The notes under the pieces were generated by a model. That model was not told the DNA's origin and made no database searches. It saw only the letters and a list, made by a program, of their open reading frames with translations. Shown here piece after piece: positions 8,511-64,000 of a stretch of 64,000 bases of DNA. This DNA is from an uncultured Verrucomicrobiae bacterium (GTDB lineage Bacteria > Verrucomicrobiota > Verrucomicrobiia > Chthoniobacterales > JAATET01), in contig CAVXHK010000003.1 of assembly GCA_963761705.1 (NCBI GenBank), positions 577,455 to 641,454 of the forward strand. Direction: 5' to 3'. The translations under genes were made by a program, and so were the position numbers. Within the stretch, counting starts at the first letter, position 1; every line of letters starts with the position of its first letter.

Positions 8511-9053
8511 ATGATGACCGATTCGACCACCCAACAAGCCACTGAGATCCCGGACGATTTGCTCGCCGAACTCGACGAGATGGTGACGCACTACCCAGTC
8601 TCGAAGCGGAGCGCGTCGCTGCCACTCCTCCACCTCTGGCAGAATCACTTCGGTTTCATCGACGAGTCGGGTGTCGAGTGGATTGCCGCGAAGTTGGAAT
8701 TAGAACCCGTCAACATTCTGGAACTCGTGACCTTCTACCCTTGGTTTCGCCGGGAAGCCGCCGGTAAGACGATCGTCCGCGTCTGCCGGACTCTCGCCTG
8801 TGCGATGGCCGGTTCTTACGAGCTGAAGGACAAATTCTGCGAAGCGACTGGGATCGATCCGGCTTTGAGCCACCACGGATTCGGACACGCGCCGCCGACG
8901 AGTGAGGACGGACAGTTCAGCGTGGAGTTTGTCGAGTGCCTCGCGAGTTGTGGCACGGCCCCGGTCTGTTTGATCAACGACCAGTTGCACGAAAATGTCG
9001 GTCTCGACGACGTCGCTCAGATCGTAACGGATTGTTCAACGGTCGAAGCGTAA
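8511..9053 (+). CDS. nuoE: NADH-quinone oxidoreductase subunit E-like (24-kDa, 2Fe-2S)
   Basis: HYPVSKRSASLPLLHLWQ...VRVCRTLACAMAGS...ECLASCGTAPV, the NuoE Cys pattern. Confidence 0.85.
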   Translation: MMTDSTTQQATEIPDDLLAELDEMVTHYPVSKRSASLPLLHLWQNHFGFIDESGVEWIAAKLELEPVNILELVTFYPWFRREAAGKTIVRVCRTLACAMAGSYELKDKFCEATGIDPALSHHGFGHAPPTSEDGQFSVEFVECLASCGTAPVCLINDQLHENVGLDDVAQIVTDCSTVEA

Positions 9054-9058
9054 GTCCC

Positions 9059-10402
9059 ATGGTCTCTCTCATCCCACAACCTCACCCTAAAGAACGCCGA
9101 GTCATCTTCGGCAACATCAGCCAGCCTGGCTGGTCGCCAGACATTGACACCTACCTTGCCAACGATGGCTATGAGGCTCTGAAAAAAGCTCTCGCCATGG
9201 AGCCGGCGGCGATCGTTGACCTCGTGAAGGCGGCGAATCTGCGCGGGCGGGGTGGCGCGGGTTTTCCGTGCGGAGTGAAGTGGAGCTTTATCAAGCGGGA
9301 CGACGGCAAAGAGCATTACATCGTGGTGAACGCCGACGAGTCGGAGCCGGGCACGTTCAAGGACCGCTACATTTTGCACAACGATCCGCATCAGCTGCTC
9401 GAGGGACTTCTCATCGCGGCGTGGGCGAACAACGTGAAGCTGGCCTACATCTACATCCGCTGTGAGTTCCCGCACGCAGCTAAGATCGTGTGGAACGCCA
9501 TCAAGGAAGCGAAGGCGAAGGGATTCATCGGAAAAGACATCTGCGGCAGCGGCTTCGACTGCGACATCTACGTGCACCAAGGCGCGGCGGCCTACATCTG
9601 CGGCGAAGAGACGAGCCTGCTCGAGTCGCTGGAGGGCAAGCGGCCCTACCCACGAATCAAGCCGCCGTATTTCCCCGCGGTGCTGGGCCTCTACATGAAG
9701 CCGACGATCGTGAACAACGTGGAGACGCTTTGCCACGTGAAGCACATTGTGAATCTCGGCGCGGAAGAATACACGAAGATGGGTTCGCCCGGCGACGGCG
9801 GAACGCGCACGATGTGCGTGAGCGGTGACGTGGTGAAGCCTGGCTACTACGAGCTACCTTGCGGGGCGGTGACGCTCGGCGAGCTGATTTTTGACATCTG
9901 CGGCGGCTTGAAGCCCGGGCGGACTTTGAAGGCGGTGATCCCGGGTGGGAGTTCAGCGAAGGTCCTGCGGGCGGACGAGACGTTCAAAGTGAAGTCGAAG
10001 GGGGCGGATGGCGAGATGGTCGAGAAGGAGATCAAGATGCTCGACGTCACGATGGACGCGGCTGGTCTCGCTTCGGTTGGAACGATGGTCGGGAGCGGCG
10101 GGGTTATGGTGCTCGACGACACGCGGAGCGCGGTTTGGGCGCTTAACAATCTTAATCAGTTCTACGCCCACGAGAGCTGCGGTCAATGCACGCCGTGCCG
10201 CGAGGGCAGTCTGTGGATGTCGAAAATGACGACCCGGATGCTGGCGGGTGAGGGTGCCGCGCAGGACCCGAAGACGCTGCAAAACGTGGCGGACAACATC
10301 GCGGGGCGGACGATCTGCGCGTTCGGCGAAGCGTGCGCTTGGCCTACGCAGAGTTTCTTGGCCAAGTTTCCAGAGGAGTTCGCCGGAGCCGCGGGCAGTT
10401 GA
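9059..10402 (+). CDS. nuoF: NADH-quinone oxidoreductase subunit F-like (51-kDa, FMN/NADH-binding)
   Basis: LRGRGGAGFPCGVKWSF, ADESEPGTFKDR and ESCGQCTPCREG motifs. Start at ATG 9059 (MVSLIPQ...), 5 nt after the nuoE stop. The track's 8936 start overlaps nuoE. Confidence 0.9.
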   Translation: MVSLIPQPHPKERRVIFGNISQPGWSPDIDTYLANDGYEALKKALAMEPAAIVDLVKAANLRGRGGAGFPCGVKWSFIKRDDGKEHYIVVNADESEPGTFKDRYILHNDPHQLLEGLLIAAWANNVKLAYIYIRCEFPHAAKIVWNAIKEAKAKGFIGKDICGSGFDCDIYVHQGAAAYICGEETSLLESLEGKRPYPRIKPPYFPAVLGLYMKPTIVNNVETLCHVKHIVNLGAEEYTKMGSPGDGGTRTMCVSGDVVKPGYYELPCGAVTLGELIFDICGGLKPGRTLKAVIPGGSSAKVLRADETFKVKSKGADGEMVEKEIKMLDVTMDAAGLASVGTMVGSGGVMVLDDTRSAVWALNNLNQFYAHESCGQCTPCREGSLWMSKMTTRMLAGEGAAQDPKTLQNVADNIAGRTICAFGEACAWPTQSFLAKFPEEFAGAAGS

Positions 10403-10592
10403 TTTTCGGAACGCGCGCCTGCGTTCTTGAGCAAAAAGTGGCGGAGGGGGCAAAGGAGAGAACGACGAGGTGGGCTTGAGCTCGTTCGTTCTAGCCGCTG
10501 CTGGCTCGGACGCCTCCTGGTTAAAGCGAATTTTTAGGTTTCTGGTGGCCGTTGTTTGACGGTCAGGGGCATTTTGGACACGGTCTTGGGCT

Positions 10593-12125
10593 ATGGGAAA
10601 ACCCGTGACTCTAATCATTCGTGACGGCTGGGGCATCAATCCGAACGGGCGGGCCGGGGCGGAAGCCGATGGAAACGCGACGTTATTGGCGAAGACTCCC
10701 TTCCACGATGAATTGTACGCCAAATATCCGCAGGGGACGCTGAGTGCGAGCGGGCTGGACGTCGGGTTGCCCGATGGCCAGATGGGGAACTCGGAAGTCG
10801 GGCACTTGAACCTGGGGGCGGGGCGGGTGGTGTACCAGGATTTTACGAAGATCAACAAGGCGATCGCGGACGGGGAGCTGGCGGGTAACGAGGTGCTCGT
10901 GGAGGCGTTTGCGAAGGCGAAGGGGGGAAGGTTGCATCTACTGGGGCTCGTCTCTGACGGAGGAGTGCACAGTCACCAGGAACACTTGGTGGCGTTGGCC
11001 GGCGCGGCGAGGGATGCGGGGGTTGACGATATTCTCGTGCACGCGATCACGGACGGGCGGGACACTTCGCCGACCGGCGGGAAGGATTACCTCGCCGAGG
11101 TGGTGGCGGGGTTAAGGCCGTCTGGCGCGGTGGTCGCGACGGTGGTTGGACGGTATTTTGCCATGGACCGGGACGAGCGGTGGGATCGGAATAAGCTGGC
11201 TTGGGACGCGATCGTGCTGGGGCGGGGCGAGGTGACGGAGAGTTCGCCGAGTGAGGCCTTGGCGGCGCGCTACGAAGCGGGGGAGACGGATGAATTCATT
11301 AAGCCGATCATTTTTGCGCACGCCGACGAGCAGCGGGTACGCGACGGGGACGTGGTGCTGTTTTTCAACTTCCGGGCGGACCGGGCGCGGCAGTTGTCGC
11401 GGGCTTTTCTGGAGTCGGACTTCGATGGGTTCGACCGCGAGCTAACGCCGAAGGTCGCTTACGTGACGCTCACGCAATACGACAAGAAGTACGGCGTGCC
11501 GGTGGTGTTTCCGAAGGAGCCACCGCGGCGGATTCTGGGCGAGATCGTGAGCGGGGCTGGGCTAAAACAGCTGCGGATCGCGGAGACCGAGAAATATCCG
11601 CACGTGACCTATTTCTTCAACGGAGGCGTCGAGAAGCAGTTCGACGGCGAAGATCGGAAGATCGTCCCGTCTCCGCAGGACGTGGCGACCTACGATCTCA
11701 AACCGGAGATGAGCGCGCCTGAGGTGGTGCGGGCCGTCGTCGAACAGCTGAAACATTACGACTTGGTGATCCTCAATTTCGCGAACCCGGACATGGTCGG
11801 GCACACCGGCGTCGTCGAAGCGGGCGTGAAAGCGGTGGAAATGATCGACGAGGGCGTGCGGCAGGTCATCGGCGAGGTCTTGAGGCTCGGCGGGTGTGCG
11901 CTCGTCACGGCGGATCACGGCAACTGCGAGACGATGCGCAATCCGGACGGAACGCCGAACACGGCGCACACGACCAACTTGGTGCAATGCCTCTACGTGG
12001 GAGCGGACGCGGCGGGTGTGACGGTGCGGGACGGGATCCTCGCGGACGTGGCTCCGACGTTGCTGGATCTGCTGGGGCTGGAGAAGCCAGCGGAAATGAC
12101 GGGCTCGAGCTTGGTGGTGCGCTGA
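10593..12125 (+). CDS. gpmI: 2,3-bisphosphoglycerate-independent phosphoglycerate mutase
   Basis: DGWG...GNSEVGHLNLGAGR...SDGGVHSH...ADHGN; full-length iPGM. Confidence 0.92.
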   Translation: MGKPVTLIIRDGWGINPNGRAGAEADGNATLLAKTPFHDELYAKYPQGTLSASGLDVGLPDGQMGNSEVGHLNLGAGRVVYQDFTKINKAIADGELAGNEVLVEAFAKAKGGRLHLLGLVSDGGVHSHQEHLVALAGAARDAGVDDILVHAITDGRDTSPTGGKDYLAEVVAGLRPSGAVVATVVGRYFAMDRDERWDRNKLAWDAIVLGRGEVTESSPSEALAARYEAGETDEFIKPIIFAHADEQRVRDGDVVLFFNFRADRARQLSRAFLESDFDGFDRELTPKVAYVTLTQYDKKYGVPVVFPKEPPRRILGEIVSGAGLKQLRIAETEKYPHVTYFFNGGVEKQFDGEDRKIVPSPQDVATYDLKPEMSAPEVVRAVVEQLKHYDLVILNFANPDMVGHTGVVEAGVKAVEMIDEGVRQVIGEVLRLGGCALVTADHGNCETMRNPDGTPNTAHTTNLVQCLYVGADAAGVTVRDGILADVAPTLLDLLGLEKPAEMTGSSLVVR

Positions 12126-12187
12126 GGAGATCGGTTTGCGCGCCAAGGCATCCGGCGGCGGGATCGGGCGCGTTTCGACTCTAGACA

Positions 12188-12715
12188 ATGAAAAACTTCA
12201 CCACGCACCTCGCCTTTCTCGCAACCGGGTCGCTTCTCCTTCTCTCTAACGCCATGGCTTTTACGAACGAACCGATTGCTGACATCGACCTCAAAAAATT
12301 CGACGGAAAGTGGTATTCGCTGACCTCGATTCCGACGGCCTTGGACAAGGATTGGTTGGAGACGGTCGAGTATTACACGTTGCGCGAGGACGGGACTTAC
12401 GACGTGCGGACGACGTACCGGAAAGAAGGTGAGGATGAGGAAAAAGAGATCAGCTCGCGGCTGTTCCCGGGTGACGATGGCGAAGAAGGGGAGATGAAGG
12501 CTCAGTTTTTTTGGCCTTTCAAGGTGGGGTATCGGATCATCGATTTACCCGAGGATTATTCCTACGTGGTGATCGGACATCCGAAAAAGAAGTATCTCTT
12601 CATCATGAGCCGCGACGCCTCGCTGCCGGAGGGGAAGCTGGCGGAGATTGTGACGCGTTGCAAGGAGTTGGGTTACGCGACGGACGAGCTGAAGAGTCAG
12701 GAACACGGCAGTTGA
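12188..12715 (+). CDS. bacterial lipocalin (Blc-like)
   Basis: Signal peptide plus the KFDGKWYSL lipocalin motif; ~175 aa. Confidence 0.8.
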   Translation: MKNFTTHLAFLATGSLLLLSNAMAFTNEPIADIDLKKFDGKWYSLTSIPTALDKDWLETVEYYTLREDGTYDVRTTYRKEGEDEEKEISSRLFPGDDGEEGEMKAQFFWPFKVGYRIIDLPEDYSYVVIGHPKKKYLFIMSRDASLPEGKLAEIVTRCKELGYATDELKSQEHGS

Positions 12716-43912: not shown

Positions 43913-43960
43913 GGTCGGAAGGTCGGAAGGTCGGAAGGTCGGAAGGTCGGAAGGTCTGAG
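43913..43960. repeat. octanucleotide tandem repeat (GGTCGGAA)x5 plus one degenerate unit
   Basis: Read directly. It fills most of the 61-nt spacer between the upstream PilT-family gene stop (43966) and the pilT ATG (43904). Confidence 0.95.
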
Positions 43961-47808: not shown

Positions 47809-49358
47809 TGGAAGGGGCGCACCGCGAGCGAAGCGAGAAGGTCGACGGTGGCCGGGACATCTTTGATGATCTGGCTGCGGAGTGGACCAACGCCGATGTA
47901 GCGGAGGTTGGGTGGAGCGTCCTGGGCTCCCGCAACCTCGATGATGGCGCGGAGGACGGTCGCGACGTAGCGCTGGGCGGAGGCGGGGAGATCGGCGAAG
48001 TGGCGGGTGTCGCTCAGGTCTTCGGACCAGCCTGGGACGTATTCGTAGACGGGGCGAAGGGTGCGGCGGAACGTATCGTCGCGAGGAACGTGGTCGACGC
48101 GTTCGCCGTCGAGGGTCTCGTAGGCTACGCAGATCGCGAGTTCGCCGTCGGTCCAATCGCCTGAGTAACTCAGGGCATCGAGTTTGTTGAGGACGAGGTC
48201 CTGGTAGCCGCCGTAGCGGAGGGCGTCGCCTTTTTCGACCGCGTCGAACCAGCCGACCATGCGTTGGCGGCCGGTGGTGGAGCCAAATTCGATGCGGCGC
48301 AGCGTGCGGCCAAGCGGGTGGTCGTCGGTGAGTTCGGTGAGAAAAAGGTGGGTGCCGACCTTGGTGTCGTAGGCTTTGCAGCAGCCGATGGTGTGGACGG
48401 GCTGGGCGGGGATGCCGGCGGATTGGAAAAATTCCGGCGTGAAGGTGTGGGAGGCGGTGACGTTAGGTGGGAAGCCGTGGCGTTTGTCGAGCCAGTAGGC
48501 TTGGCCGAATTCACCAAGGATCGTTTGGCCTCGCGCGAGGGCTTGGAGGGTGAGTTCGCGGACGTCGGTGACGCTGGCGACGAGGGCCTGGCCGGCTTGC
48601 CAGTAAGTTTCGACGAGGAGTTCGACGTCGAGGGTGAAGGGCGGACCGGCGTTGAAACGGGTGAAGTCAAATTCGGCGGTGGAAAAGAGATCGGCGGCGA
48701 GGACCTCGGCGTGGGCGCGGGTCTCGGCGGTGGTGAGCGTCTCGAACAGTCCGGCCCAGCGGTCGGGGGAGAGTTGGCAGACGTGCTCGATGACCGCGAG
48801 GGCACGGTTGACGCGGGCGCGGACTTTGCGGTCGAAGAGCGAACGGTCGGCTCGGAAGTCGGAGTAGGTGATTTGGAATTGGGAAATCTCGTCCGTGTAG
48901 GCCGGGGTGATGCCGCGCCCAGTGGAACCCCGGGGTTCTTCGGCGAGGATCTCGGTCCGATAAAATTCCCACGCGAGGTCGAGGAGGCGGTGACTGAGAT
49001 CGGAGACGAGGGTGCGTTCGTCGATGCGGAGGCGGGGGAGGGCGGTGTGGCCGTGGAGTTCGCAGTAGGCGGCTTCCCAGAGGAATTTGCGTGGATCGGC
49101 GACGACGCCGGCGCCGATGGTGAGGTGCGGAACGTGGGGATCGACGACGCCCCCGGGGATGAGATTCAGTTTGACGTCGCCGACGGAATGGCCGGAGTTC
49201 GAACCGCCGTTGACTTTCATGACGGCGGCGACGGCGTCGGGGCGGCCGGTGGACTCGCGAATTTCGTCGAGGACCTCGAGGATAACGCGACCCTTGCCCT
49301 CGTCGCCGGTGGAGATGCCGGTGTCGGCGATGAGTTGGGATGTGAATGGGGATAACAT
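47805..49358 (-). CDS. purA: adenylosuccinate synthetase family protein, unusually long (517 aa)
   Basis: GDEGKGR P-loop, GGSNSGHS (=GGxNAGHT), [17 protein letters not shown] (=EGAQG), KAYDTKVG and [15 protein letters not shown] (=TTGRxRRxGW). It is about 85 aa longer than the 432-aa E. coli PurA, mostly through a central insertion. Confidence 0.75.
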
Positions 49359-49363
49359 GAGTT

Positions 49364-49402
49364 GGAAGGTCGAAGGTCGGAAAGTCGAAGGTCAGGAAGT
49401 GG
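49364..49402. repeat. degenerate 7/8-nt tandem tract (GGTCGAA/GGTCGGAA-type)
   Basis: GGAAGGTCGAAGGTCGGAAAGTCGAAGGTCAGGAAGTGG, immediately 5' of the PurA-like ATG (49358) in the guaB-purA spacer. It is related to the 43913-43960 and 55687-55714 tracts. Confidence 0.8.
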
Positions 49403-49464
49403 CTTCGCGTATCTAACAATCGCACCAGCGATTCTGAAACGACTTTCCGACCTTGGACTGCGCG

Positions 49465-51016
49465 TCATCGCGCTTCCGCCCCCGGCGTTGCCTTGACCGT
49501 GATGACGTCGTGGGGGTTGCTTTCGCGCTGGCCGGCGGGGCTGACGCGGATATAGCGGGCGTTTTCCCGGAGGGCGGGGAGGTCGCGGGCGCCGAGGTAG
49601 CCCATGCCGGACTGGAGGCCGCCGATGAGCTTCTCGGAGGACGGTGTCGAGGGGGCCGCTGGATTCTTTGAGGGCTTCGATGCCTTCGGGGGCGGCTTTC
49701 TGCGGGGCGTCGGATTTTTCGTGGCCGTAGCGGGCGGCGCTGCCTTCCTGCATGGCCTCGCGGGAACCCATGCCGCGGTATTGTTTGTAGACTTTGCCGT
49801 TGATCTCGATGATGCGGCCCGGGGATTCGTCGGCTCCGGCGAGGAGGCCGCCACAGATGACGGCGTCGGAGAGGGTGAGGGCTTTCACGATGTCGCCGGA
49901 CTTCGTGATACCGCCGTCGGCGATGGTGGTGACGTGATGCTCGGCGGCGGCGCGGGCGCAGACGTAAAGCGCGGTCATCTGCGGAATGCCGACGCCGGCG
50001 ACGACGCGGGTGGTGCAGATGCTGCCGGGTCCCTGGCCGATCTTGATCGTGCTGGCACCGGCTTTGGCTAGGAATTCCACGCCGTCGGCGCTGGTGACGT
50101 TGCCGGCGATGAGGGTGAGGTCGGGGAAGGCGTCGCGGATGAGGCGGACGGCGTCGCCGACGCCCTTCGTGAATCCGTGGGCGGTCGAGACGGCGATGGC
50201 GTCGATGCCTTCGTCGACGAGATTTCCGACGTGGCCGAGGATGCGGTCGCGGTCGAGGGTGCCGTCGGCGTGGCGGTGGGGCGAGACGGCGGCTCCGCAC
50301 ATGAGACGAAACTTGGCGTCGCGGGCGGGGCGGACGAGGCGACGGGTTTCCTCCTCGATGCGCTCGATGTCGGAGAGAGTGAAGAGGCCGCGGAGGCGGT
50401 CTTTTCCGTCAACGACGAGAAGCTTATGGATGCCGAGGTGTTCGGTGAAAAAGTGGTCGGCGGTGTCGATCGGCTTCGAGCGGATCTCGGATTCGGCGAT
50501 GGTGAAGACTTGGTCGCGCGGCGTCATGGCCTCGCGGACGGAGCGGTGGGCGTAGCGATTTTTCACGACGCGGCCTGGGAGTAAACCGAGGAGGCGATTT
50601 TCCGAATCGACGACCGGAAACGTGCTGAAGCCGAAGCGCTTTTTCGCGATGAGATCAAGGATTTCACCAATGAGCTGGTCGGGCCCGACCTTGATGGGCT
50701 CTTGAATGAAGCCGTGAATGTGATTTTTAACGCGGGCGACTTCTTTGACCTGAGCCTCATCGGTCATGTTGTAGTGGATGAGCCCGAGACCGCCGTTGAG
50801 GGCCATCTGGATCGCCATGCGCGACTCGGTCACGGTGTCCATGTCGGATGAGACGATGGGGAGTTGGAGCTGAAGGGAGTCCGAGAGGGCGACGGCCAGC
50901 TGGGCGTCACGGGGGAGAATCTCGGAGTAGCGCGTTGCGAGGCTGATGTCATCGAACGTGAGACCAACGGGCTGGCGGAAGAATTCGTCGGCGGCAAGGT
51001 AGAGGTCGTGGACCAT
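49465..51016 (-). CDS. guaB: IMP dehydrogenase, apparent frameshift near 49630-49645
   Basis: Full IMPDH with the CBS pair and GSICTTR active site. After ...[17 protein letters not shown] the conserved tail (E)[43 protein letters not shown] continues in the adjacent frame, which stops at 49465. Total length is 1552 nt, not a multiple of 3. Confidence 0.85.
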
Positions 51017-51149
51017 GGAGGAGGGTGTTAGCTCGTGTTTTGGGTGGCAAGGCGATTCTGTGAATGGCGGGGGAGCGGGCGAAAATGAACGGGCGGGTGG
51101 GGATTTTTGGAATTGGATCGGGGTGATCGCGGGGATAGCGTTGCGGCGG

Positions 51150-51638
51150 ATGAGACCGGGCGCCAGCATCGAGAAGCTTTGGATTTCTCCGGCGCACAAT
51201 TATTTTGGTCACTTCGGCAAGCCGCCGGGTGAACACGCGACCGTGTCGGTCGAGGCGGTGGAATGCCACGCTGGGAAGGGTCTGGTCGGGGATCGGTTTT
51301 ACGATTTCAAACCCGCGAAATTTCCGGATGGCTACGACGGGCAGGTCACGTTCTTCGCGGTCGAAACCTGGGAAGATTTGTGTGAGCTGATGGGAACGCG
51401 GGACCGGGGGCCGGAGGTCTTCCGGCGCAACGTGCTGACGCGGGGGGTGGATCTGCGGGGGATGAAGGGCGAGGAATTTTCGGTCCAGGGTGTGCGGTTT
51501 TTGGGGGTGAAAGAGGCGGCTCCGTGCCAGTGGATGGACGCGGCGTTTGGGCCGGGAGCCTTGACGGCGCTCAAGGGGCGGGGCGGTCTGCGGGCGCGGG
51601 TGCTGACGGATGGCGTGATTCGCGCGGGGGCGGCGTGA
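51150..51638 (+). CDS. MOSC domain-containing protein
   Basis: About 162 aa from ATG 51150: [15 protein letters not shown]...GLVGDRF...[11 protein letters not shown]...C.WMD...GGLRARVL, a MOSC-like beta-barrel pattern. Confidence 0.65.
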
Positions 51639-52201: not shown

Positions 52202-54457
52202 TCAGCGTGGCTCGAGCCGGACGGCGCACGCCTTGTAGGCGGGCTGGCGGGACGTCGGGTCGACTTCGTTGCGGGTGAGTTCGTTGGTGACGCCGTAGTG
52301 CATCGGGAGGAAGACCTGGCCGGGTTGGACGATGGGGGTGACGCAGGCGCGGACGGTGATCGTGCCGCGGCGGGAGGTGACGGCGACTTGCGATTCGGCG
52401 GTGATGCCGAGGCGGGCGGCGTCGGCGGGGTGGATCTCGACGTAGGCGTCGGCGGGATAGAGTTTGCGGAGGACGTCGCTCTTGCCGGTGCGGGTCTGGG
52501 TGTGCCACTGCGAAGAGGTGCCGCGGCCGGTGAGGAGCGTGAAGGGATACTCGGCGTCGGGGGGCTCGGCGAGCGGGCGGGGGGATTCGAAGATAAAGCG
52601 GGCGCGGCCGTCGGGGTGGTGAAACTGGCCGTCCTGAAAGAGCCGACGCTCTTGATTTATGATTGATGATTTACCATTGATGATTTGGGAAGTTTGGGCT
52701 TCGCCCTGGGTATAAGGCCATTGGATGCCGCCTTCGGTGTCGAGGTGCTGGTAGTCGCGGATGCCGGAGATGTCGCAGGGTTGGTCGGCCAGGGCGCGTT
52801 TCATGATTTGGAACGCGGCCTCGGGGCTGGTCCACTCGGCGAAGAGGTCGCCGCAACCCCACGCCTCGGCGAGGACGCGGATGATGCTGAAATCACTCAG
52901 CGCCTGGCCGGGGGCGCGGCGGACTTTTTTGACGAGGCCGATGCGGCGCTCGGAGTTGATGAAGGTGCCGTCTTTTTCGCCCCAGCCGGCGGCGGGGAGG
53001 ACGAGGTCGGCAAGCTGGGCGGTCTCGGTGGAATGATACATGTCCTGGACGACGAGGTAGTCGAGCTTGCGAAGGAGAGCCTGGGCGCGCTTGGATTGGA
53101 TCCAGGAATGGGCCGTGTTCGTGGCAACGACCCAAAGGCCTTTGATCTGGCCCGTCTCGATGCCGTCGATGATCTGGTCGTAGGCGAGGCTGTCGTCGTG
53201 CGGGATACGGTCGACGGGGATCCGGAGGGCGGCGGCGACTTTTTCGCGGTCGGCGGCGCTCTGGAACTTATGGCCGCCGAGGAGGTTCGTCGTGCTGGAG
53301 AAAATGCGCGACCCCATGGCGTTGCACTGGCCGGTGATGGAATTTGCGCCGGTGCCGGGGCGGCCGATGTTGCCCGTCATCAAAGCAAGGTTGATGATGG
53401 CTTGCGCGGTGCGGGTGGCTTCGTGGCTCTGATTCACGCCCATCGTCCACCAGAACGAAACGCGCCGACCGCGGGCGATGGTCGCGGCGAGGTCGTGGAT
53501 TTGCGCGACGGCGAGGCCGGTGTCGGCGGCGACGCGCTCGGGCGTGAAAGTGGTGGCGAACGCGGCGAACTCCTCGAAGCCGGTGGTGTGGGCTTCGATG
53601 AAACGGCGGTCGACGGTGTCGATGGCGATGAGCAGGGCGGCGACGCCGTAGAGGAGGGCGAGGTCGGATTTTGGACGGAGCGCGAGGTGATCGGTCGCGG
53701 CCATCGCGGTCTCGGTGCGTCGGGGATCGATGACGATGATGCGCGGATCGTGGGGATTGCGCATGACGCGCTGCCACATGATGGGGTGCGCGACGCAGAG
53801 GTTGGAACCGACAAAAACGAGCACGTCGGACTCCTCGAAGTCGGCGTAGGTGTAGGGCGGGGCGTCGAACCCGAACGACTCTTTGTAGGCGGATACGGCC
53901 GTGGCCATGCACTGCCGCGTGTTGCCGTCACCGTGGCGGATCCCCATTCCAAACTTGGCGACCACTCCAAGGAACGCCATCTCCTCGGAGACAATCTGGC
54001 CGGTGCTCAGGAACGCGAGACTGTCGGGACCGTGCTCGCGCTGGATGCGCTGGAAATGATCGCGGAAGGCCGTGGCGGCGGTCGGCCAGTCCGACGGCTT
54101 CAGCTCGCCGGTTCCGGCGTCCCGGATGAGCGGGGTCGTCGCCCGGTCGGGTGCATCGAGAGCGGACAGGGCCTCCCATCCTTTCGGACAGGCCATGCCA
54201 AGATTGACCGGATACTCGGTGTCGGCGGAGAGGTTGATCGCCTCGCCGTCCTTGAGGTGGATTCGGAGCCCGCAGCCGGTCGCGCAGTAGCCGCAGACGG
54301 CGGTCGTGGTCGCGTCGGGCGTGAGGCGGGTGGGCACGGAGCCGAGCCCGAACGCGGCGGGGGACTGAACGAGGTCGGCCGTGAGCGGGCCGGTGCGGGG
54401 GCGGAGGAGGGAGTCGGTTGAGAGTTGAGAGTCGATGGCCGAGCGGAGTTTTGACAT
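52202..54457 (-). CDS. nasA: assimilatory nitrate reductase catalytic subunit (molybdopterin oxidoreductase, NasA/NarB type)
   Basis: N-terminal CGYCATGCG 4Fe-4S motif, MGD-binding domains and a C-terminal molybdopterin dinucleotide-binding domain. No twin-arginine motif in the N-terminus. Confidence 0.88.
52652..52689. repeat. AT-rich heptamer-periodic element inside nasA, in-frame (encodes [12 protein letters not shown])
   Basis: On the coding strand it reads AAATCAT CAATGGT AAATCAT CAATCAT AAATCAA. Nt 52655-52688 are 34/34 identical to 61306-61339, the nrtC-nrtD spacer. Confidence 0.9.
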
Positions 54458-54485: not shown

Positions 54486-54760
54486 TTGGAAACGTTGGTC
54501 AACGTGGCGGAGCTGAAAACAATTTGAGTAAGTATCTCGCGAGGGTGGCGGAGGGGGAGACGGTGGTGATCTGCAATGGGAACCTGCCGATCGCGCGGGT
54601 CGAGGAGGTCTTCAAAAAAAGAACCGCAGCAAGGCGGGATTTGATCCGAGGGTCAAAATTCTCGGCTCGCTCCATGGCCCGCTCATTCCCGAGGAAGATT
54701 GGAACATGCCGCGGGATGATTTCGATCCGTTGGCGTGTGCGCAGTCGCGAAGGCGAGTGA
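54486..54760 (+). pseudogene. orphan Phd/YefM-type antitoxin remnant with at least 2 frameshifts, antisense to the nas operon
   Basis: TTG 54486 gives LETLVNVAELKTI*. The next frame gives LSKYLARVAEGETVVICNGNLPIARVEEV..., and a third gives LGSLHGPLIPEEDWNMPRDDFDPL. Together these form a typical antitoxin if one A is added at aaaacaAtttgag and one at tcaaaAttctc. No toxin ORF follows. The end coordinate is approximate. Confidence 0.5.
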
Positions 54761-54810
54761 ATCTTCCAACTCCTATTCTCAAACACCCGCACGTCCATTC
54801 GATGAGATGA

Positions 54811-56358
54811 TCACGCGCCGCCGGGCATGCGGTGGGCGACGACGGTGGTGAAGAATTGGTGGCGCTCGATGCCCTCGCTCAGGACGAGAATGGCCATACC
54901 GACGACCGGGAGGAAGGGGAGCAGCACCGCGCCAAGGACGGCGGTCGCGTTGCGCAGCAGCACCTGCCGGCGAAGCGGGCCGCGGAGGAGCTGGGCCGAG
55001 AGGGAATCGTGAGACGGGTCGGCGGGCGCGGCCTTTGCGCGGAAGCGGGCTTCGGCGAGAAGTTTTGCACCGAGGATCAGAAGCGCGATCGGATAACAGG
55101 CCGCGACGGCGGCGGTCGCAAAGAGTGCAACGGTGCCGTAAAACCGGAAAGCGGTGCGCGGAAAGCGCCAGAGTTCGCGCTGGGTATCGGCGTAGACCAT
55201 CACCGATGTGAATACGCAAAGGATGCCGTAGAGCGCAGCCGGGATGCCAATGAGACGCGGAAAGATCACCGCACCAGCGACGAGCGGCGGGAGAGCGCCG
55301 AAGGCGACGACCTCGCGGCTTAACCACGAGCGCCGCAGCCCGAGGAAGACGCGCCAGGCTTTGAGCGGCTGACCGAGGTGGAGGACGCTGGCGGTGAGGC
55401 CGGTCATGAGCGCCGCTAGCGCGGCGCAGTTGAGGGTTGAGAGTTTGAAGTTGAGAGTTGGTGAGAGGGTGAGGGGGAAGCTTGCCGACGAGATCGTTGC
55501 CGCGAGGACGAGACCAACGGCGGCCTGAGTGAGGGTGAGCATGATGACCAGCGGGAGGTGGCTGTGCTCGAGGCGGGGGCGGCGGGCGTCGGCGCGGCTG
55601 GCAGAGGACGGGATAATCTTTTTGGTGACGTAGCGGGTGGTGGGTTGCGTGTAGCTGGACGTGATGACGCCAGGCAGAAGCTGACCTTCGACCTTCGACT
55701 TTGGACTTTGGACTGAGACGATTTGAATCGCTTCCGTCGGGCAGGCTTGCACGCAGGCGGGGGCTTCGCCGACGGCGAGCCGCGAATGACACATGTCGCA
55801 TTTGCGGACGATGCCCTTTTTTTTGGAATACTTCGGGACGTCGTAGGGGCACTTGAGGCTGCAGTATTGGCAGCCGATGCACTGGTCGTCCAAATGGCGG
55901 ACGATGCCGGTGATTTCGTCCTTCTCGTAGGCGAGGACGGGGCAGCCGTTCGCGCAGGCGGGGTCGGCGCAGTGGTGGCAGGCGGTGGTGACGGTCTGCT
56001 GATACGCGATGCCTTCGGCTTCTCCGAGGAGCATACCGACGTCGCGCCACGTTTCGTTTTCCTCGAGTCCGTTCAGGCTGTGACAGGCGGAGACGCAGGC
56101 TTTGCAGCCGGTGCATTTGTCGAGGTCGACCTCGAACGCGTATTGCTCGCCGGGTCCGGGGGCGGTGAGGGGAATGAGGTCGCGGTAATGCTTGGCCTGA
56201 GTCGGACTCGTCGCGTCGGCGTGGTGCTGGGCGAAGCGCTCGGCCGCGGTGAGGTTGCGTTGCTCGGCGAGGAGTTCGTCGATGAGGTTGGGGGGAGTTG
56301 TTGGTTGTTGGTTATTGGTTATTGGTGAATGCCGCTCCGCTGGAGTGAGAGTGTTCAT
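54811..56358 (-). CDS. 4x[4Fe-4S] ferredoxin (DmsB/NrfC-like) fused to a DmsC-like polytopic membrane anchor
   Basis: Start ATG 56358 overlaps the DUF4202 stop as ATGA. Cys clusters CTGCKACVSAC, CHHCADPACANGC, CIGCQYCSLKC and CDMC...CVQAC, followed by ~8 TM helices. Three heptamer tracts lie in-frame. Confidence 0.75.
   Translation of the reverse strand: MNTLTPAERHSPITNNQQPTTPPNLIDELLAEQRNLTAAERFAQHHADATSPTQAKHYRDLIPLTAPGPGEQYAFEVDLDKCTGCKACVSACHSLNGLEENETWRDVGMLLGEAEGIAYQQTVTTACHHCADPACANGCPVLAYEKDEITGIVRHLDDQCIGCQYCSLKCPYDVPKYSKKKGIVRKCDMCHSRLAVGEAPACVQACPTEAIQIVSVQSPKSKVEGQLLPGVITSSYTQPTTRYVTKKIIPSSASRADARRPRLEHSHLPLVIMLTLTQAAVGLVLAATISSASFPLTLSPTLNFKLSTLNCAALAALMTGLTASVLHLGQPLKAWRVFLGLRRSWLSREVVAFGALPPLVAGAVIFPRLIGIPAALYGILCVFTSVMVYADTQRELWRFPRTAFRFYGTVALFATAAVAACYPIALLILGAKLLAEARFRAKAAPADPSHDSLSAQLLRGPLRRQVLLRNATAVLGAVLLPFLPVVGMAILVLSEGIERHQFFTTVVAHRMPGGA
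55430..55464. repeat. heptamer tract (TTGAGRG-type x5) in-frame in the membrane domain
   Basis: TTGAGGG TTGAGAG TTTGAAG TTGAGAG TTGGTGA, which encodes ...LSPTLNFKLSTLN.... Confidence 0.8.
55687..55714. repeat. heptamer tract (TTCGACC x2, TTGGACT x2) in-frame at the ferredoxin/membrane-domain junction
   Basis: Encodes VQSPKSKVEGQ between ...ACPTEAIQIVS and the first TM region. Confidence 0.85.
56298..56325. repeat. heptamer tract (TTGTTGG x2, TTATTGG x2) in-frame near the N-terminus
   Basis: Encodes ...SPITNNQQPTT..., 11-20 codons after the start. Confidence 0.85.
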
Positions 56359-56987: not shown

Positions 56988-58734
56988 GTTGGTAGCGTTT
57001 GTTTGTTTTCAGGTCGGCTACGTAGGCGGCGGCTTCCTCTTCGGTTTTCCCTCCGGCGGTTTGGACGACTTGGTGGAGCGCCTCGTCGACGTCCTTGGCC
57101 ATGCGTTTGGCGTCGCCGCAGACGTAGAAATGCGCGCCGTCCTCGAGCCACGCCCAGAGGTCGGTCGCCCGCTCGATCATCCGATTCTGGACGTAGATTT
57201 TATCGGCCTGATCGCGGGAGAAAGCGGTGTCGAGGCGGGTGAGGTGGCCGTCCGCGAGAAAGGTTTCGAGTTCGTCCTCATAGAGAAAATCGGTGGCTGC
57301 TCTCTGGTCGCCAAAGAAGAGCCAGTTTTTTCCAGTTGCGCCGGTGGCTCGGCGATCATGGAGGAACGCGCGGAACGGCGCGATGCCGGTGCCGGGACCG
57401 ACCATGATCATCGGCGTGTCGCCCGACGGCGGGAGCCGGAAGCCTTTGGAGACCTGAACGAACACGGGGATCGGCCCCGTGACGCGGTCGGCGAGGAAGG
57501 TGGAGCAGACGCCCTTGCGCCCGCGACTGAAGCTGTCGTAGCGGACGGCGGCGATGGTGAGGTGGACTTGGTCGGGGAAGGCGTTGAGGCTCGACGAGAT
57601 TGAATAAAGCCGCGGCTGGAGCTTGCGAAGGTGGGACACGAAGTCGGCGGGCGTGAACGTGACGCCGGGGAAATCGACGAGCAGGTCGACGACCTCGCGG
57701 CCCCAGAGGTAATGCGCGAGCGCCTCCTTGGCTTCGGGGACCACGAGGTCGGCGAGCGTTTTGTCGGAGCTGCGTTCGGCGATGGCGTCGAGGAGCTGGG
57801 CGGGAATCCTGGTGATCTCGTAATCACGGACGAGGGCATTGCGGAGCGGGGCTTCGCCGCCTTCGGGCGTGGCCACGGCTTCCTCGCCGTCGCAATTGAG
57901 AGCGTGGAGGATCTCGTCGACGACGGCGGGGCAGTTCGACGGGATCACGCCGAGGGCGTCGCCGACTTCGTAGGTGAGGCCGGAGCCAGTGAGGTCGATT
58001 TCGAAGTGGCGGACTTCCTTGGCGGACGTGTCGGCGGTGAGCTTGCGGTTGGTGATGAGTTTGGCGGGGAAGGGGTGCTTTCTCCCGTAGGCGGGAGCAG
58101 GATTGATGATTGATGATTGATCATTTATGATTTGGGGAATGGCGGCTTCGCCGATTGGGAACTCGACCGACTCCAATGCGGTGAAGACGGCTTCCTGCCA
58201 GGTGGCGGCGGACTCTTCGTAGTCGACGTTGCAGTCGACTCGCTCGTAGAGGCGGCTGGCTCCGAGGTCGGTGAGGCGGGTGTCGACGTCGACTCCAAAT
58301 TTGCAGAACGCCTCGTAGTTCGTGTCGCCGAGGGCGAGGACGGAGTATCGGAAATTTTCGAGTCGCGGAGCCGTGTCGGCGATGAGTTCTTCGTGGAAAT
58401 CGTGGGCGTTGGCGGGTGGCTCGCCGTCGCCGAAGGTGCTCGTCACGATGAGGGCGACGGGCACGTTGGCTAAGTCCGCGACTTTGACTTTGTCGAGGCC
58501 GATGGCACTGGATTCCCAGCCGCGCTTCTTGGCGGCTTTGGCGATTTGTTTGGCCAGAGATTCGGCGTTGCCGCTTTCCGTGCCGAAGTAGATCGGGACC
58601 GTTTTTTTCGGGGCTTCGAGGGCCGCGGGAGTCGCGTCGTTGCCGGAGAAGACGCCCGCGAGGAAGCCGTTGAGCCAGGCGCGCTGCTCGGTCGAGAACG
58701 GAGCGGTGTCGGGAATGAAGGGTGCGGTGCTCAT
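56974..58734 (-). CDS. diflavin reductase (sulfite-reductase flavoprotein CysJ-like)
   Basis: Flavodoxin domain (IYFGTESGNAE, TFGDGEPP) plus an FAD/NADPH domain (RLYSISSS, MVGPGTGIAPFRAF, C-terminal ...YQRDVY). Confidence 0.85.
   Translation of the reverse strand: MSTAPFIPDTAPFSTEQRAWLNGFLAGVFSGNDATPAALEAPKKTVPIYFGTESGNAESLAKQIAKAAKKRGWESSAIGLDKVKVADLANVPVALIVTSTFGDGEPPANAHDFHEELIADTAPRLENFRYSVLALGDTNYEAFCKFGVDVDTRLTDLGASRLYERVDCNVDYEESAATWQEAVFTALESVEFPIGEAAIPQIINDQSSIINPAPAYGRKHPFPAKLITNRKLTADTSAKEVRHFEIDLTGSGLTYEVGDALGVIPSNCPAVVDEILHALNCDGEEAVATPEGGEAPLRNALVRDYEITRIPAQLLDAIAERSSDKTLADLVVPEAKEALAHYLWGREVVDLLVDFPGVTFTPADFVSHLRKLQPRLYSISSSLNAFPDQVHLTIAAVRYDSFSRGRKGVCSTFLADRVTGPIPVFVQVSKGFRLPPSGDTPMIMVGPGTGIAPFRAFLHDRRATGATGKNWLFFGDQRAATDFLYEDELETFLADGHLTRLDTAFSRDQADKIYVQNRMIERATDLWAWLEDGAHFYVCGDAKRMAKDVDEALHQVVQTAGGKTEEEAAAYVADLKTNKRYQRDVY
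58101..58136. repeat. AT-rich heptamer-periodic element in-frame in the flavodoxin-FNR linker (encodes QIINDQSSIIN)
   Basis: On the coding strand it reads AAATCAT AAATGAT CAATCAT CAATCAT CAATC. Confidence 0.9.
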
Positions 58735-61303: not shown

Positions 61304-61340
61304 TTATTTATGATTGATGATTTACCATTGATGATTTGGC
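61304..61340. repeat. AT-rich heptamer-periodic element filling the nrtC-nrtD intercistronic spacer
   Basis: The 42-nt gap between stop 61345 and ATG 61302 is essentially this element. 61306-61339 is identical to 52655-52688. Confidence 0.9.
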
Positions 61341-61344
61341 CGGG

Positions 61345-63138
61345 TTAGGCGGGCTGGAGGGTGGGGGACGGGTGGACTTGGTCGAGGAGAGTTTCGGGGT
61401 CCGCGGGCGGGGCGACGACTTTCCAGCGGGTGAGGCCTGCGAGGATGTTTTCCGACTCGGCGCGGGTGAGGGTGGTTTCGGAGAAGACGTTGAAGTCGGG
61501 GACTTCGGCGGTCTTTCCGTGGCCGTAGTCGTAGGTGCCGTCGAGACCGCGGGCGCTGTAGGCGGGGTCGGCGTTGACGTAGGTTTTTTGCGAAATGATT
61601 TCGATGAGCTCGGCGCGGTTGGCGGGTTCGTCGCACCAGCCGCAGGCTTCTTCGAGGGCGGCGACGATGGACGCGTGCTTGTCGACGTTGGCGTTCGCCC
61701 ACGCGGGCGTGGTGCCGAGGAGCTTCTCGACGTGGCCGGGGGCGAGGTCGAGGTCGGTTGCGACGACGTAGCCGATGCCCTCGTGAACGGCGCGGGCGTT
61801 CCAAGGTTCGCCGACGCAATAGCCGTCGAGGTTGCCGGCGGCGAGGTTGGCGACCATCTGCGCGGGCGGGACGGCGATAATCTCGACGTCCGTATCGGGG
61901 TCGATCCCGCCCGCGCTCAGCCAATCGCGGAGCAGGATATTGTGGGTGGAGGTCGGGAAAACCACGCCGAAGATGAGCTTGCGGTCGCCCGCGTCGCGTC
62001 CGTCGAGGTAGGCCCGAAGGTCGGTGGCGGTCTGGATCCCGCGGGCGTGAAAGCGCTCGGCGAGCGTGATGGCGTTGCCATTTCGGCTCAGGACCATCGA
62101 TGCGACGACGGGTTGCGGGTTCACCCCCGGGCGGCCCAGGGTGGAGCCGAGCGGCATACCGGCCACCATGGCGGCGAGGTCGAGTCGGCTGTCGAGGACG
62201 CCGTCGAGGATGGCCTTCCAACTCGGCTCGCGGCAGAGCTGAACGTCGACGCCGTGCTTCTCGAAAAATCCCTTTTCTTTTGCGATGGCTAATGGGGCGC
62301 AGTCGGAGAGCGGAATGAACCCGATGGTCGTGGCGGTTCGCTTCGGACCGTCGGCCTTTCTGGCTTTGTGCTTGTTGAGGAAATAGAGGAGTTCGTTGCG
62401 CTGCCGGTAATAGTTCGGGTGATTGATGGCCTCGCCGCGGGTGCGGGGTCGGGTGAGACCGACGGTCATGAGCTCGCCCACCTTGGCGGCGGGGCCGTTG
62501 GACATCATCACGACGCGGTCGGAGAGCAGGATCGCTTCTTCGACGTCGTGGGTGACCATGAGGACGGTGATGCGATGGGCCTCCCAAATGCTGAGGAGTT
62601 GTTCCTGCAGGCGGCCGCGGGTGAGGGCGTCGAGGGCGCCGAAGGGTTCGTCGAGGAGGAGGACGCGGGGCTTGACGACGAGGGCGCGGGCGATGCCGAC
62701 GCGCTGCTTCATGCCGCCGGAGATTTCGCCGGGGAGTTTGTCGGCGGCGGGGATGAGCGAGACCATGGCCAGGTGCTCGTCCACGAGGGCGGTCCGGTCG
62801 GCTTTGCCAAGGGTGCCGTGGACGGCGTCGACGCTGAGGCGGACGTTCTGGCGGACTGTTAGCCACGGGAGGAGGGAGTGGTTCTGGAAAACGAACATGC
62901 GGTCGGGGCCGGGGCCGGTGACGGGTTTGCCGCCAACGGTGATGCTGCCGGTGTCGCAGAGGTGGAAACCGCCGACCATGTTGAGAAGGGTCGATTTGCC
63001 GCAACCGGAGTGGCCGATGAGAGCCACGAATTCGCCCTCGCTAACGCTCAAATTGACCCCTTGGAGGGCGGTGAACGTTTTGCCGTCGGGGGACTTGAAG
63101 GTCTTTCCAGCGTCTTGAATGTCGATGAAAGCGGTCAA
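61345..63138 (-). CDS. nrtC: nitrate ABC transporter ATP-binding protein with a C-terminal NrtA-like solute-binding/regulatory domain, NrtC-like
   Basis: N-terminal ABC ATPase ([18 protein letters not shown]) plus a ~330-aa periplasmic-binding-protein-like domain, which is the NrtC architecture. The only possible start is TTG 63138, because an in-frame TAA lies directly upstream. Confidence 0.85.
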   Translation of the reverse strand: MTAFIDIQDAGKTFKSPDGKTFTALQGVNLSVSEGEFVALIGHSGCGKSTLLNMVGGFHLCDTGSITVGGKPVTGPGPDRMFVFQNHSLLPWLTVRQNVRLSVDAVHGTLGKADRTALVDEHLAMVSLIPAADKLPGEISGGMKQRVGIARALVVKPRVLLLDEPFGALDALTRGRLQEQLLSIWEAHRITVLMVTHDVEEAILLSDRVVMMSNGPAAKVGELMTVGLTRPRTRGEAINHPNYYRQRNELLYFLNKHKARKADGPKRTATTIGFIPLSDCAPLAIAKEKGFFEKHGVDVQLCREPSWKAILDGVLDSRLDLAAMVAGMPLGSTLGRPGVNPQPVVASMVLSRNGNAITLAERFHARGIQTATDLRAYLDGRDAGDRKLIFGVVFPTSTHNILLRDWLSAGGIDPDTDVEIIAVPPAQMVANLAAGNLDGYCVGEPWNARAVHEGIGYVVATDLDLAPGHVEKLLGTTPAWANANVDKHASIVAALEEACGWCDEPANRAELIEIISQKTYVNADPAYSARGLDGTYDYGHGKTAEVPDFNVFSETTLTRAESENILAGLTRWKVVAPPADPETLLDQVHPSPTLQPA

Positions 63139-63176
63139 TTTATTTATGATTTACCATTTATGATTGATGATTTGGG
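63139..63176. repeat. AT-rich heptamer array, left boundary of the four-helix-bundle cassette
   Basis: TTTATTTATGATTTACCATTTATGATTGATGATTTGGGG. Nt 63142-63165 match the reverse complement of 63527-63550 at 23/24 positions. Confidence 0.9.
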
Positions 63177-63184
63177 GTGAGATC

Positions 63185-63541
63185 ATGAATCGGGATCAAC
63201 TGGCGGCTCGGACGAAAGAGTTTGCGAAACGCGTGCTGAGGGTGGCTGAGGCGTTGCCGACTGGTTACGCGGGGCGGACGATTGGGAATCAGATCTGCCG
63301 AAGCGGGTGTTCGGTGGCCGCGAACTACCGGGCGGCTCTGCGCGGGAAGTCCCGAGCCGACTTTGCCAATAAGATCACCGTCGTTCTCGAGGAGGCGGAC
63401 GAAACGATGTTCTGGCTCGAAATGATCGACGAAATGGACCTGCTTCCGAAGAGCAAACTCGAGCCCCTCCTCGGCGAAGCCGGAGAGCTGGTCAAGATCT
63501 TCGGAGCAACCCTCGCCACCACCAAAAATCATAAATCGTAA
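63185..63541 (+). CDS. four-helix-bundle protein (23S rRNA IVS protein / Avd-like family), full-length copy 1
   Basis: 118 aa: MNRDQLAARTKEFAKRVLRVAEALP...GNQICRSGCSVAANYRAA.RGKSRADFANKI..VLEEADETMFWLEM. The family pattern (F...v......P........Q..RS..SI.AN..EG....S..DF..k......E..ET..WL) is recognisable. It lies antisense to the nrt operon. Confidence 0.8.
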   Translation: MNRDQLAARTKEFAKRVLRVAEALPTGYAGRTIGNQICRSGCSVAANYRAALRGKSRADFANKITVVLEEADETMFWLEMIDEMDLLPKSKLEPLLGEAGELVKIFGATLATTKNHKS

Positions 63542-63560
63542 ATCATAAATCATAAATCTA
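63526..63560. repeat. (AAATCNT)x5 heptamer array, right boundary of copy 1
   Basis: AAATCAT AAATCGT AAATCAT AAATCAT AAATCTA. It overlaps the last codons and the stop of copy 1. Confidence 0.95.
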
Positions 63561-63562
63561 AC

Positions 63563-63856
63563 GTGGCGTTGCCGACTGGTTACGCGGGGCGGACGATTGG
63601 GAATCAGATCTGCCGAAGCGGGTGTTCGGTGGCCGCGAACTACCGGGCGGCTCTGCGCGGGAAGTCCCGAGCCGACTTTGCCAATAAGATCACCATCGTT
63701 CTGGAGGAGGCGGACGAAACGATGTTCTGGCTCGAAATGATCGACGAAATGGACCTGCTTCCGAAGAGCAAACTCGAGCCCCTCCTCGGCGAAGCCGGAG
63801 AGCTGGTCAAGATCTTCGGAGCAACCCTCGCCGCCACCAAAAATTATAAATCGTAA
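63563..63856 (+). CDS. four-helix-bundle protein, 5'-truncated tandem copy 2
   Basis: Homology to copy 1 begins at 63566 (=63251). It lacks the first ~22 codons, and GTG 63563 is a possible start. I count 4 substitutions over ~290 nt versus copy 1. It may be non-functional. Confidence 0.6.
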   Translation: MALPTGYAGRTIGNQICRSGCSVAANYRAALRGKSRADFANKITIVLEEADETMFWLEMIDEMDLLPKSKLEPLLGEAGELVKIFGATLAATKNYKS

Positions 63857-63882
63857 ATCATAAATCATAAATCATAAATCTA
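63841..63882. repeat. (AAATNNT)x6 heptamer array after copy 2
   Basis: AAATTAT AAATCGT AAATCAT AAATCAT AAATCAT AAATCTA, one unit more than after copy 1. Confidence 0.95.
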
Positions 63883-63884
63883 AC

Positions 63885-64000
63885 GTGGCGTTGCCGACTG
63901 GTTACGCGGGGCGGACGATTGGGAATCAGATCTGCCGAAGCGGGTGTTCGGTGGCCGCGAACTACCGGGCGGCTCTGCGCGGGAAGTCCCGAGCCGACTT
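63885..64000 (+). CDS. four-helix-bundle protein, 5'-truncated tandem copy 3 (partial; runs off the right edge)
   Basis: Sequence from 63888 repeats 63566 onward, with the same junction CTAACGTGGCGTTGCCGAC. Confidence 0.55.
   Translation, partial: MALPTGYAGRTIGNQICRSGCSVAANYRAALRGKSRAD

Follow-up and report, generated by a model that had tools for sequence, protein, structure and literature searches.

The window, that is, the whole 64-kb stretch of DNA analysed here, contains a nitrate operon, and all the genes of the region discussed below lie on the minus strand. A 34-nt sequence located between nrtC and nrtD (61306-61339) recurs exactly and in the same orientation within nasA (52655-52688); it reads ATTTATGATTGATGATTTACCATTGATGATTTGG on the plus strand and CCAAATCATCAATGGTAAATCATCAATCATAAAT on the mRNA (minus) strand. 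The first-pass annotation had reported this identity, and both the window scan and the shuffles confirmed it: there is no third match at three or fewer mismatches in the 64-kb window, and 100 dinucleotide-preserving shuffles yielded 0 matches to the 34-mer, the chance expectation being 0. The 34-mer is an imperfect array of four different units, arranged in the order AAATCAT, CAATGGT, AAATCAT, CAATCAT and AAAT. The spacer extends from the nrtC stop codon TAA (61347-61345) to the nrtD ATG (61302-61300), and its 42 nt consist of CCCGG, the 34-mer and AAC. The element was previously described as the whole spacer; it accounts for 34 of the 42 nt, and not for the entire spacer.

A scan for heptads of the (A/C)AATCAT type revealed six arrays in the window, all of which are located between 52.6 and 63.9 kb. 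The six modules share 11 kb, and none is found in the other 52 kb. The modules and the 4HB gene associated with them are as follows.

52655-52688, minus strand: nasA loop module, identical to the spacer 34-mer
58100-58138, minus strand: cysJ-like hinge module, 4 mismatches to the 34-mer
61306-61339, minus strand: nrtC-nrtD spacer module, a solo arm without a nearby inverted partner
63139-63175, minus strand: nrtC leader module, ending at the nrtC TTG; its plus strand is the (ATGATTK)n 5' arm of the 4HB cassette
63185-63541, plus strand: 4HB gene of 118 aa, PF05635 23S_rRNA_IVP, S23p/Avd-like, antisense to the nrt operon
63524-63560, plus strand: 4HB 3' arm CCAAAAATCATAAATCGTAAATCATAAATCATAAATC, which contains the 4HB stop codon
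63841-63882, plus strand: second 4HB 3' arm, at the 3' end of a further 4HB gene copy

The first-pass annotation had missed the cysJ-like hinge copy (58100-58138) and those on the plus strand (63526-63560 and 63841-63882). Each module spans 34-35 nt, or about 4.5 heptads, with the pattern CC-(A/C)AATNNT x4-(A/C)AAT. The eight arrays of the AAATCAT type in the window and in the sister genome described below could all be aligned without a gap to CC-AAATNNT-MAATNNT-MAATNNT-MAATCAT-MAAT, which argues for the copying of a discrete element and against arbitrary products of slippage. Two of the three sense frames of the module contain stop codons, leaving one open. Analysis with TRF at period 7 marked 52653-52685, 58101-58132, 61306-61336, 63526-63558 and 63841-63880. 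The arrays of the window thus comprise tandem 7-nt units in about 3-6 copies, as in the cyanobacterial STRR, the dispersed tandem heptanucleotide repeats of Calothrix and Nostoc. The flanks of either 34-mer copy hold no inverted partner and hence no terminal inverted repeat. Comparison of these flanks (TTC/CAAG against CGG/AACA) revealed no common direct repeat that would indicate a target-site duplication, and the cassette flanks gave the same result.

Period-7 arrays with other units are present in the same part of the window, with 12 of the 13 arrays falling within 49-64 kb. Those beyond the (A/C)AATCAT type include the following.

49364-49398: GAAGGTC array, shortly before the ORF whose start is at 49358
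54417-54432: TCTCAAC array, NasA N-terminus
55428-55460: CTCAACT array, DmsC loop
55683-55714: CCAAAGT/CGAAGGT array, Fer4-DmsC linker
56297-56326: CAATAAC/CAACAAC array, N-terminus of the Fer4/DmsC protein

Beside the GAAGGTC array, the IMPDH ORF (49217-51199, 660 aa) has its Pfam IMPDH match at residues 79-523 and overlaps the next ORF (start 49358) by about 140 nt; this overlap suggests either that the call extends too far or that the protein has an unusual C-terminal extension. A tandem octamer, GGTCGGAA x5.5 with 100% matches, is located at 43913-43956.

The 4HB cassette between nrtB and nrtC

The S23p-bearing intervening sequence (IVS) of 23S rRNA is known from Leptospira and Coxiella burnetii, in which it occupies helix 45. 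In the window, a small PF05635 four-helix-bundle ORF is likewise enclosed by complementary long-stem arms, here between nrtB and nrtC and not in helix 45 of 23S rRNA. The cassette (63139-63560) is composed of the nrtC-leader array and a stop-codon-bearing (AAATCAT)n array, which form inverted arms around the 4HB gene. The arms pair as a stem of about 35 bp, and either transcript strand of 63125-63575 folds with a long closing stem. It differs from the S23p IVS in its location in a nitrate operon, in its AT-rich arms of the (A/C)AATCAT type, and in that the arms also occur alone: the 34-mer copies enclose no ORF and represent solo arms. Duplex calculations gave -31.9/-33.4 kcal/mol for the solo 34-mer against the opposite arm, -29.8 kcal/mol for the cognate arm, and -9 +/- 2.7 kcal/mol for shuffles. 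Pairing of the solo 34-mer with the opposite arm is as strong as that of the cognate arm. The first-pass annotation had pointed to a related array before the nrtC TTG start and to a possible link with the 4HB cassette. The former is present at 63139-63175, and the latter was borne out by the arrays that bracket 4HB genes as inverted arms in the window; this link also extends to the sister genome, to Bacteroides and to many metagenomic 4HB loci.

Downstream of the cassette, a 315-bp tandem unit (63250-64000) is repeated in at least 2.4 copies with 97% identity and runs past the end of the window. The unit comprises the last approximately 96 codons of the 4HB gene, its distal three-quarters, together with the heptad arm. 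The repeat copies after the first 4HB gene occupy 63565-64000 on the plus strand, and at the repeat junction ...AAATCTAACGT is joined to GGCGTTGCCGAC. As a result of this tandem duplication, there are extra arms that lack a partner.

An Rfam search of 52-64 kb at E<=1 returned no family and no rRNA, and a search of 12 array-bearing loci returned nothing relevant. A role of the arrays as sigma-70-type promoters or intrinsic terminators was rejected, since the consensus-scan counts were within shuffle expectation. The PDB relatives of the window 4HB protein are 2RLD and 2GSC, each with five identical chains per entry. The match between these five chains and five heptads, the commonest array length, is a numerical coincidence, from which it may or may not follow that pentamers read the arrays.

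Translated copies and the sister genome

As claimed in the first-pass annotation, the second copy of the 34-mer is translated, within a 751-aa NasA ORF with the Pfam domains Molybdop_Fe4S4, Molybdopterin and Molydop_binding. It encodes an 11-residue peptide (then Q) at residues ~590-601, in the sole stop-free frame of the three. The insert is located in a hypervariable loop that runs from GGIQWP to ERRLF. In an AlphaFold2 model of NasA (mean pLDDT 69), residues 586-606 have a pLDDT below 50; this low-confidence segment agrees with a tolerated loop on the surface, without being strong evidence for one. The cysJ-like copy reads QIINDQSSIIN, again in the sole open frame, and lies exactly between the Flavodoxin_1 and FAD_binding_1 domains. 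In both the NasA loop and the CysJ hinge, the insertion is in frame and at a permissive protein site, as in elements of the MITE or RPE kind. In another Verrucomicrobiota genome (L042), an AlaRS-like ORF contains translated IQKSEINNHQSSIS of the same unit family.

Sequence analysis of 117 NasA homologs revealed that the GxxQWP-xRRLF loop varies in length from 9 to 44 residues. A 7-residue periodicity, as expected from translated heptads, is seen in 20 of the 117 loops, with many unrelated peptides. Inspection of the DNA confirmed a solo (AACGCTC)x5.6 array in the NasA loop of one locus (L205, 3763-3801) and a complete in-frame (GGATGAA)n...(TTCATCC)n hairpin in that of another (L206, 7733-7799). 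The NasA loop of the sister genome (L001, 11768-11851) also carries an in-frame heptad hairpin, with units unrelated to those of the window. Taken together, the periodic loops and these three arrays demonstrated repeated in-frame occupancy of the NasA loop, which is thus an insertion hot spot.

The sister genome L001 (ENA ERZ25039505 contig_16453) is the closest retrievable relative of the window, with 85% identity in NasA and 82% in operon DNA (18% divergence). Its gene order is identical, and it likewise carries an antisense 4HB cassette between nrtB and nrtC, the arms of which differ from those of the window by one base; the nrtC-leader module is conserved with one substitution. At the two sites of the 34-mer the genomes are different. 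The nrtC and nrtD genes of L001 overlap by ATGA with zero spacer, and the hairpin in its nasA loop has (GAAATNN)n/(NNATTTC)n arms. At the cysJ hinge, L001 has a CACCAGT/CACCAAT array of equal length in a different phase. Positional homology of the two cysJ-hinge arrays was rejected; given the 2-nt offset of unit phase and an identity of only about 62%, replacement of the array is likelier than divergence. The nirA-cysJ gap of L001 contains a 60-nt array-bearing insert of its own, which is missing from the window. Period-7 arrays with other units occur at matching protein positions in the two genomes, namely the Fer4/DmsC N-terminus and inter-domain linker, the DmsC loop and the NasA N-terminus, and display concerted unit changes. 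Period-7 arrays are absent from two Verrucomicrobiota loci of more distant relationship (L122 and L124). In the gap between the Fer4/DmsC gene and nasA, a segment of the window of lower GC (54500-54800), with ORFs of 99 aa (minus strand) and 78 aa (plus strand) that gave no significant Pfam match, is missing from L001 over about 190-300 nt.

If the two 34-mer copies were as old as the split between the window and L001, identity at 34 of 34 positions would have a probability of about 0.82^34, or about 0.001. Thus, the duplicate is either young or kept identical by conversion. Since L001 has no spacer and holds other arrays in its nasA loop, the 34-mer copies are recent insertions or conversions. 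The earlier claim of recent copying as opposed to convergence is therefore supported, given the complex unit order and the absence of the sequence from both sister-genome sites.

Arrays and 4HB loci in public genomes

Scans with the pattern MAATCATMAATCATMAAT yielded at least 120 loci in genome contigs and at least 120 in viral contigs. Among the matches listed, the genome loci belong to Bacteroidota, Verrucomicrobiota, Planctomycetota, Acidobacteriota, Desulfobacterota, Cyanobacteria, Chlorobi and others; arrays of 5 units are the most frequent. Inverted pairs in this list have a clear polarity: the arrangement (ATGATTT)n-gap-(AAATCAT)n occurs 35 times versus 4 times for the opposite one. The gaps of the listed pairs are either 2-164 nt long, often with a GC-rich mini-hairpin, or about 350-530 nt. 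The short-loop pairs fold with z = -3 to -13. In the window, in L001, in Bacteroides oleiciplenus (L037) and in a further locus (L061), the long gap is occupied by a 4HB gene that reads away from the ATGATTT arm; L107 has the same layout with an upstream arm of the TGCTGAT type. We also considered that most arrays might accompany a 4HB gene. This was rejected, as such a gene is adjacent at 3 of the 120 array-selected genome loci and 0 of the 120 viral loci among the matches listed. Arrays and empty hairpins therefore greatly outnumber gene-bearing cassettes, and it may be the arrays that are primary, not the cassette.

An independent set of 80 metagenomic 4HB loci was chosen by protein similarity alone. 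Within about 110 nt of the 4HB gene, a period-7 array is found upstream in 48% of the 80 loci and downstream in 48%, compared with 5% of control windows; about half of the 80 genes have no clear arms. Duplexes of a locus's own arms have a mean energy of -34.7 kcal/mol, versus -24.6 kcal/mol for flanks swapped between loci (p ~ 1e-11). Upstream and downstream units are reverse complements of each other in eight of ten strong pairs, and the units differ from cassette to cassette (AAAATCC, AATCAGC, CAATCAC, AAATCGC, TCTGACC and others). The results demonstrated covariation of the arms, as for an S23p-type IVS/4HB hairpin, which argues that the stem itself is under selection. A core is nevertheless recognisable across phyla: among the 4HB loci, 23 of the 35 arms on the downstream side contain AATC, and 23 of the 37 on the upstream side contain GATT (about 65%).

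Observations of dispersed heptanucleotide repeats in cyanobacteria, Xanthomonas and Geobacter go back to 1990, and those of the S23p intervening sequence to 1993. The arrays described here resemble the heptanucleotide repeats (STRR, Xanthomonas, Nostoc and Geobacter) in their 7-nt units, in a copy number of about 4-5, in their mostly intergenic location, in the convergent inverted pairs, and in the turnover of length and sequence at orthologous sites between close relatives. They differ in being AT-rich in a 63% GC genome and in entering the NasA and CysJ-like reading frames; the earlier studies, moreover, drew no link to 4HB genes. In Geobacter metallireducens, 49 elements of four GGACCGG heptads are found within and between genes, together with opposite-strand pairs of five heptads, and were read as regulator sites (PMC2700814). 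The Xanthomonas GGGAATC and Nostoc GGGGA(T/C)T heptamers, studied as G-quadruplex formers, form convergent inverted pairs that turn over between close relatives, and share the AATC/GATT core with the (A/C)AATCAT units; bacterial heptamers are over-represented and otherwise uncharacterised (PMC4692102). A precedent for an array beside a 4HB gene is the Coxiella S23p IVS, in which three to four tandem GACAGAT heptamers, varying in number between strains, lie directly upstream of the ORF, and the 5' cut by RNase III falls at the first heptamer repeat (PMC4990558). A literature search with terms for Verrucomicrobia heptanucleotide repeats and 4HB/IVS proteins returned no array-4HB link beyond Coxiella. 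Genes of the 23S_rRNA_IVP family are known to be wedged between operon genes, for example cmr3/cmr2 (PMC3936711). Avd of the diversity-generating retroelements belongs to the same four-helix-bundle family, PF05635 (PMC10053308), as does the window 4HB protein. The differences among the arrays are not adenine-specific, unlike those of these retroelements; C, G and A are all affected, as in CA/GG/CG/GA at unit positions 5-6. Nor was a template/variable repeat pair noticed beside the 4HB gene, whose immediate neighbours in the window and in L001 are nrtB and nrtC.

Rickettsia palindromic elements (RPEs) are about 100-150 bp long and carry a conserved peptide. They enter unrelated metabolic genes in frame at fold-compatible positions, where they add a peptide (PMC10969869). 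The in-frame hairpins in the NasA loop of L001 and L206 and the solo arms in the window and L205 are comparable to RPEs and MITEs. In contrast, the unit in the window is a 34-nt heptad array that occurs as single arms and varies in sequence between lineages, and neither a target-site duplication nor a parent transposon was found for the window copies.

Origin and possible roles of the duplicate

The present comparisons enable us to propose a putative model, in which the 34-mer is probably a solo arm of an IVS-like heptad hairpin element that is tolerated in spacers and permissive protein loops. Such an element would comprise tandem 7-nt units, about five in number, that share a GATT/AATC core, its complete form being 5'-(NNNGATT)n - loop - (AATCNNN)n-3'. 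The place of the loop would be taken by a short GC-rich mini-hairpin in some elements and by a small 4HB (S23p/Avd-like) gene in others, following the plan of the S23p IVS. Accordingly read, the window would hold one complete 4HB cassette (nrtB-nrtC) and three solo arms, all built from the same 34-35 nt module. Most likely, one copy of the identical pair served as template for the other, or a common source gave rise to both, once the sister lineages had separated. Insertion may account for the copying, or else short-patch gene conversion from one array to another. That no transposase or other mobilising enzyme was identified counts against copying of an element. Solo arms would then survive only where they are harmless, as presumably neutral passengers. 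In the spacer, the sense arm lacks AUG codons, SD-like sequence and structure alike, and may have become the initiation region of nrtD incidentally. In protein loops and linkers, arms would persist only in the stop-free frame of the module. The complete stem is a putative RNase III substrate, by analogy with the IVS.

The same data can be read as a selected initiation leader for nrtD (and nrtC), which would be A/U-rich, G-poor, unstructured and SD-free in an organism without Shine-Dalgarno pairing, the nasA and cysJ copies being accidental by-products. Arrays do lie directly 5' of the nrtD and nrtC starts, the spacer folds at only -5.5 kcal/mol for 71 nt (z = -0.3) with the solo 34-mer unstructured, and no SD-like motif is visible before nrtD, nrtC, cysJ, nasA or the Fer4/DmsC gene. 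Among the matches listed from public loci, with crude ORF rules for gene calls, an ATG ORF of at least 100 aa begins from -4 to +25 nt of the end of a solo array in the sense orientation in 38 cases versus 10 antisense, a roughly fourfold excess; a looser neighbour-gene orientation test, superseded by this strict one, gave no bias (15:15). Moreover, a viral contig of 63% GC (L211, IMG/VR UViG_3300020118_000364) carries five AAATCAT arrays in about 4 kb (8841-12454), three of which end directly at an ATG. The AAATCAT family thus also populates GC-rich phage or prophage genomes. The antisense array, however, has AUGs and UGAs in all frames, so that purifying selection against that orientation explains the 38:10 bias without any function. 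Only about 19% of the solo arrays in the list abut a start codon, and units at the same site vary freely between lineages. In addition, nrtD of L001 starts from the ATGA overlap with neither spacer nor array, and identical or related modules, including two window copies, lie in coding loops in which initiation is unneeded. Leader function therefore cannot be the reason for the existence of the element, and we regard a selected leader as unlikely. Any such role for nrtD is secondary; the sense orientation is compatible with initiation and perhaps favourable. For the same reasons, namely the nasA and cysJ copies within coding loops, the overlap in L001 and the position of most arrays elsewhere away from start codons, a translation-leader or processing-site purpose, as suggested in the first-pass annotation, was not established.

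Still less probable is that the solo copies serve as RNA-level partners, within the nrt-nir-nas mRNA, of the unpartnered antisense-type arms left by the tandem 4HB duplication, and thereby create RNase III sites or long-range structures through which the operon is processed or regulated. At least two antisense-type and four sense-type arms are present on one strand, the predicted duplexes between cassette arms and solo copies reach -21 to -33 kcal/mol versus -9 for shuffles, and the Coxiella IVS is indeed cut by RNase III at its heptamer repeats (PMC4990558). Nevertheless, cutting at the nasA and cysJ copies would destroy both messages, and the arrangement is not conserved in L001; we rate this reading low for these two reasons. 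Besides, the NasA-loop arrays elsewhere have unrelated units and no evident partner. Independent polymerase slippage in situ at each array, with a convergent identity, is the least probable origin of all. A passage of one paper proposes slippage for the over-representation of bacterial heptamers (PMC4692102, citing Mrazek 2007), and the unit-level concerted changes in orthologous arrays of the window and L001 are of the kind that slippage would produce. Yet it is already contradicted as the origin of the duplicate by the identical imperfect order of four units over 34 nt at two loci, the fixed module length of 34-35 nt in eight arrays, and the arms around 4HB genes, which are inverted complements. 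Slippage may have shaped the arrays after insertion.

Beyond the solo-arm model itself, we put forward, as a speculation that is doubtful at present, that heptad-array hairpins constitute a widespread and unrecognised class of very small mobile elements. The approximately five repeats, with their GATT/AATC core, would provide the binding register of a pentameric 4HB protein, and copying would be templated, possibly reverse-transcribed or hairpin-primed, so that new spacers between cistrons and new surface loops of enzymes, NasA among them, would arise continually. The IVS, the STRR and the heptamers of Xanthomonas and Geobacter would then belong to one system. The elements are of a known kind but so far unexplained, and no paper retrieved explains the heptanucleotide repeats or the S23p IVS. 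If the speculation is true, the 34-mer pair would be a freshly caught copying event.

In summary, this locus ties the dispersed heptanucleotide repeats to the S23p IVS through stem arms that covary among 4HB cassettes of different phyla. Single arms are seen to be copied within a genome, and one enzyme loop has been repeatedly colonised in frame by unrelated units. With a sister genome free of the copies, the locus provides a concrete system in which the movement of very short repeats, binding by 4HB proteins, and the creation of protein loops and operon spacers by selfish DNA become testable.
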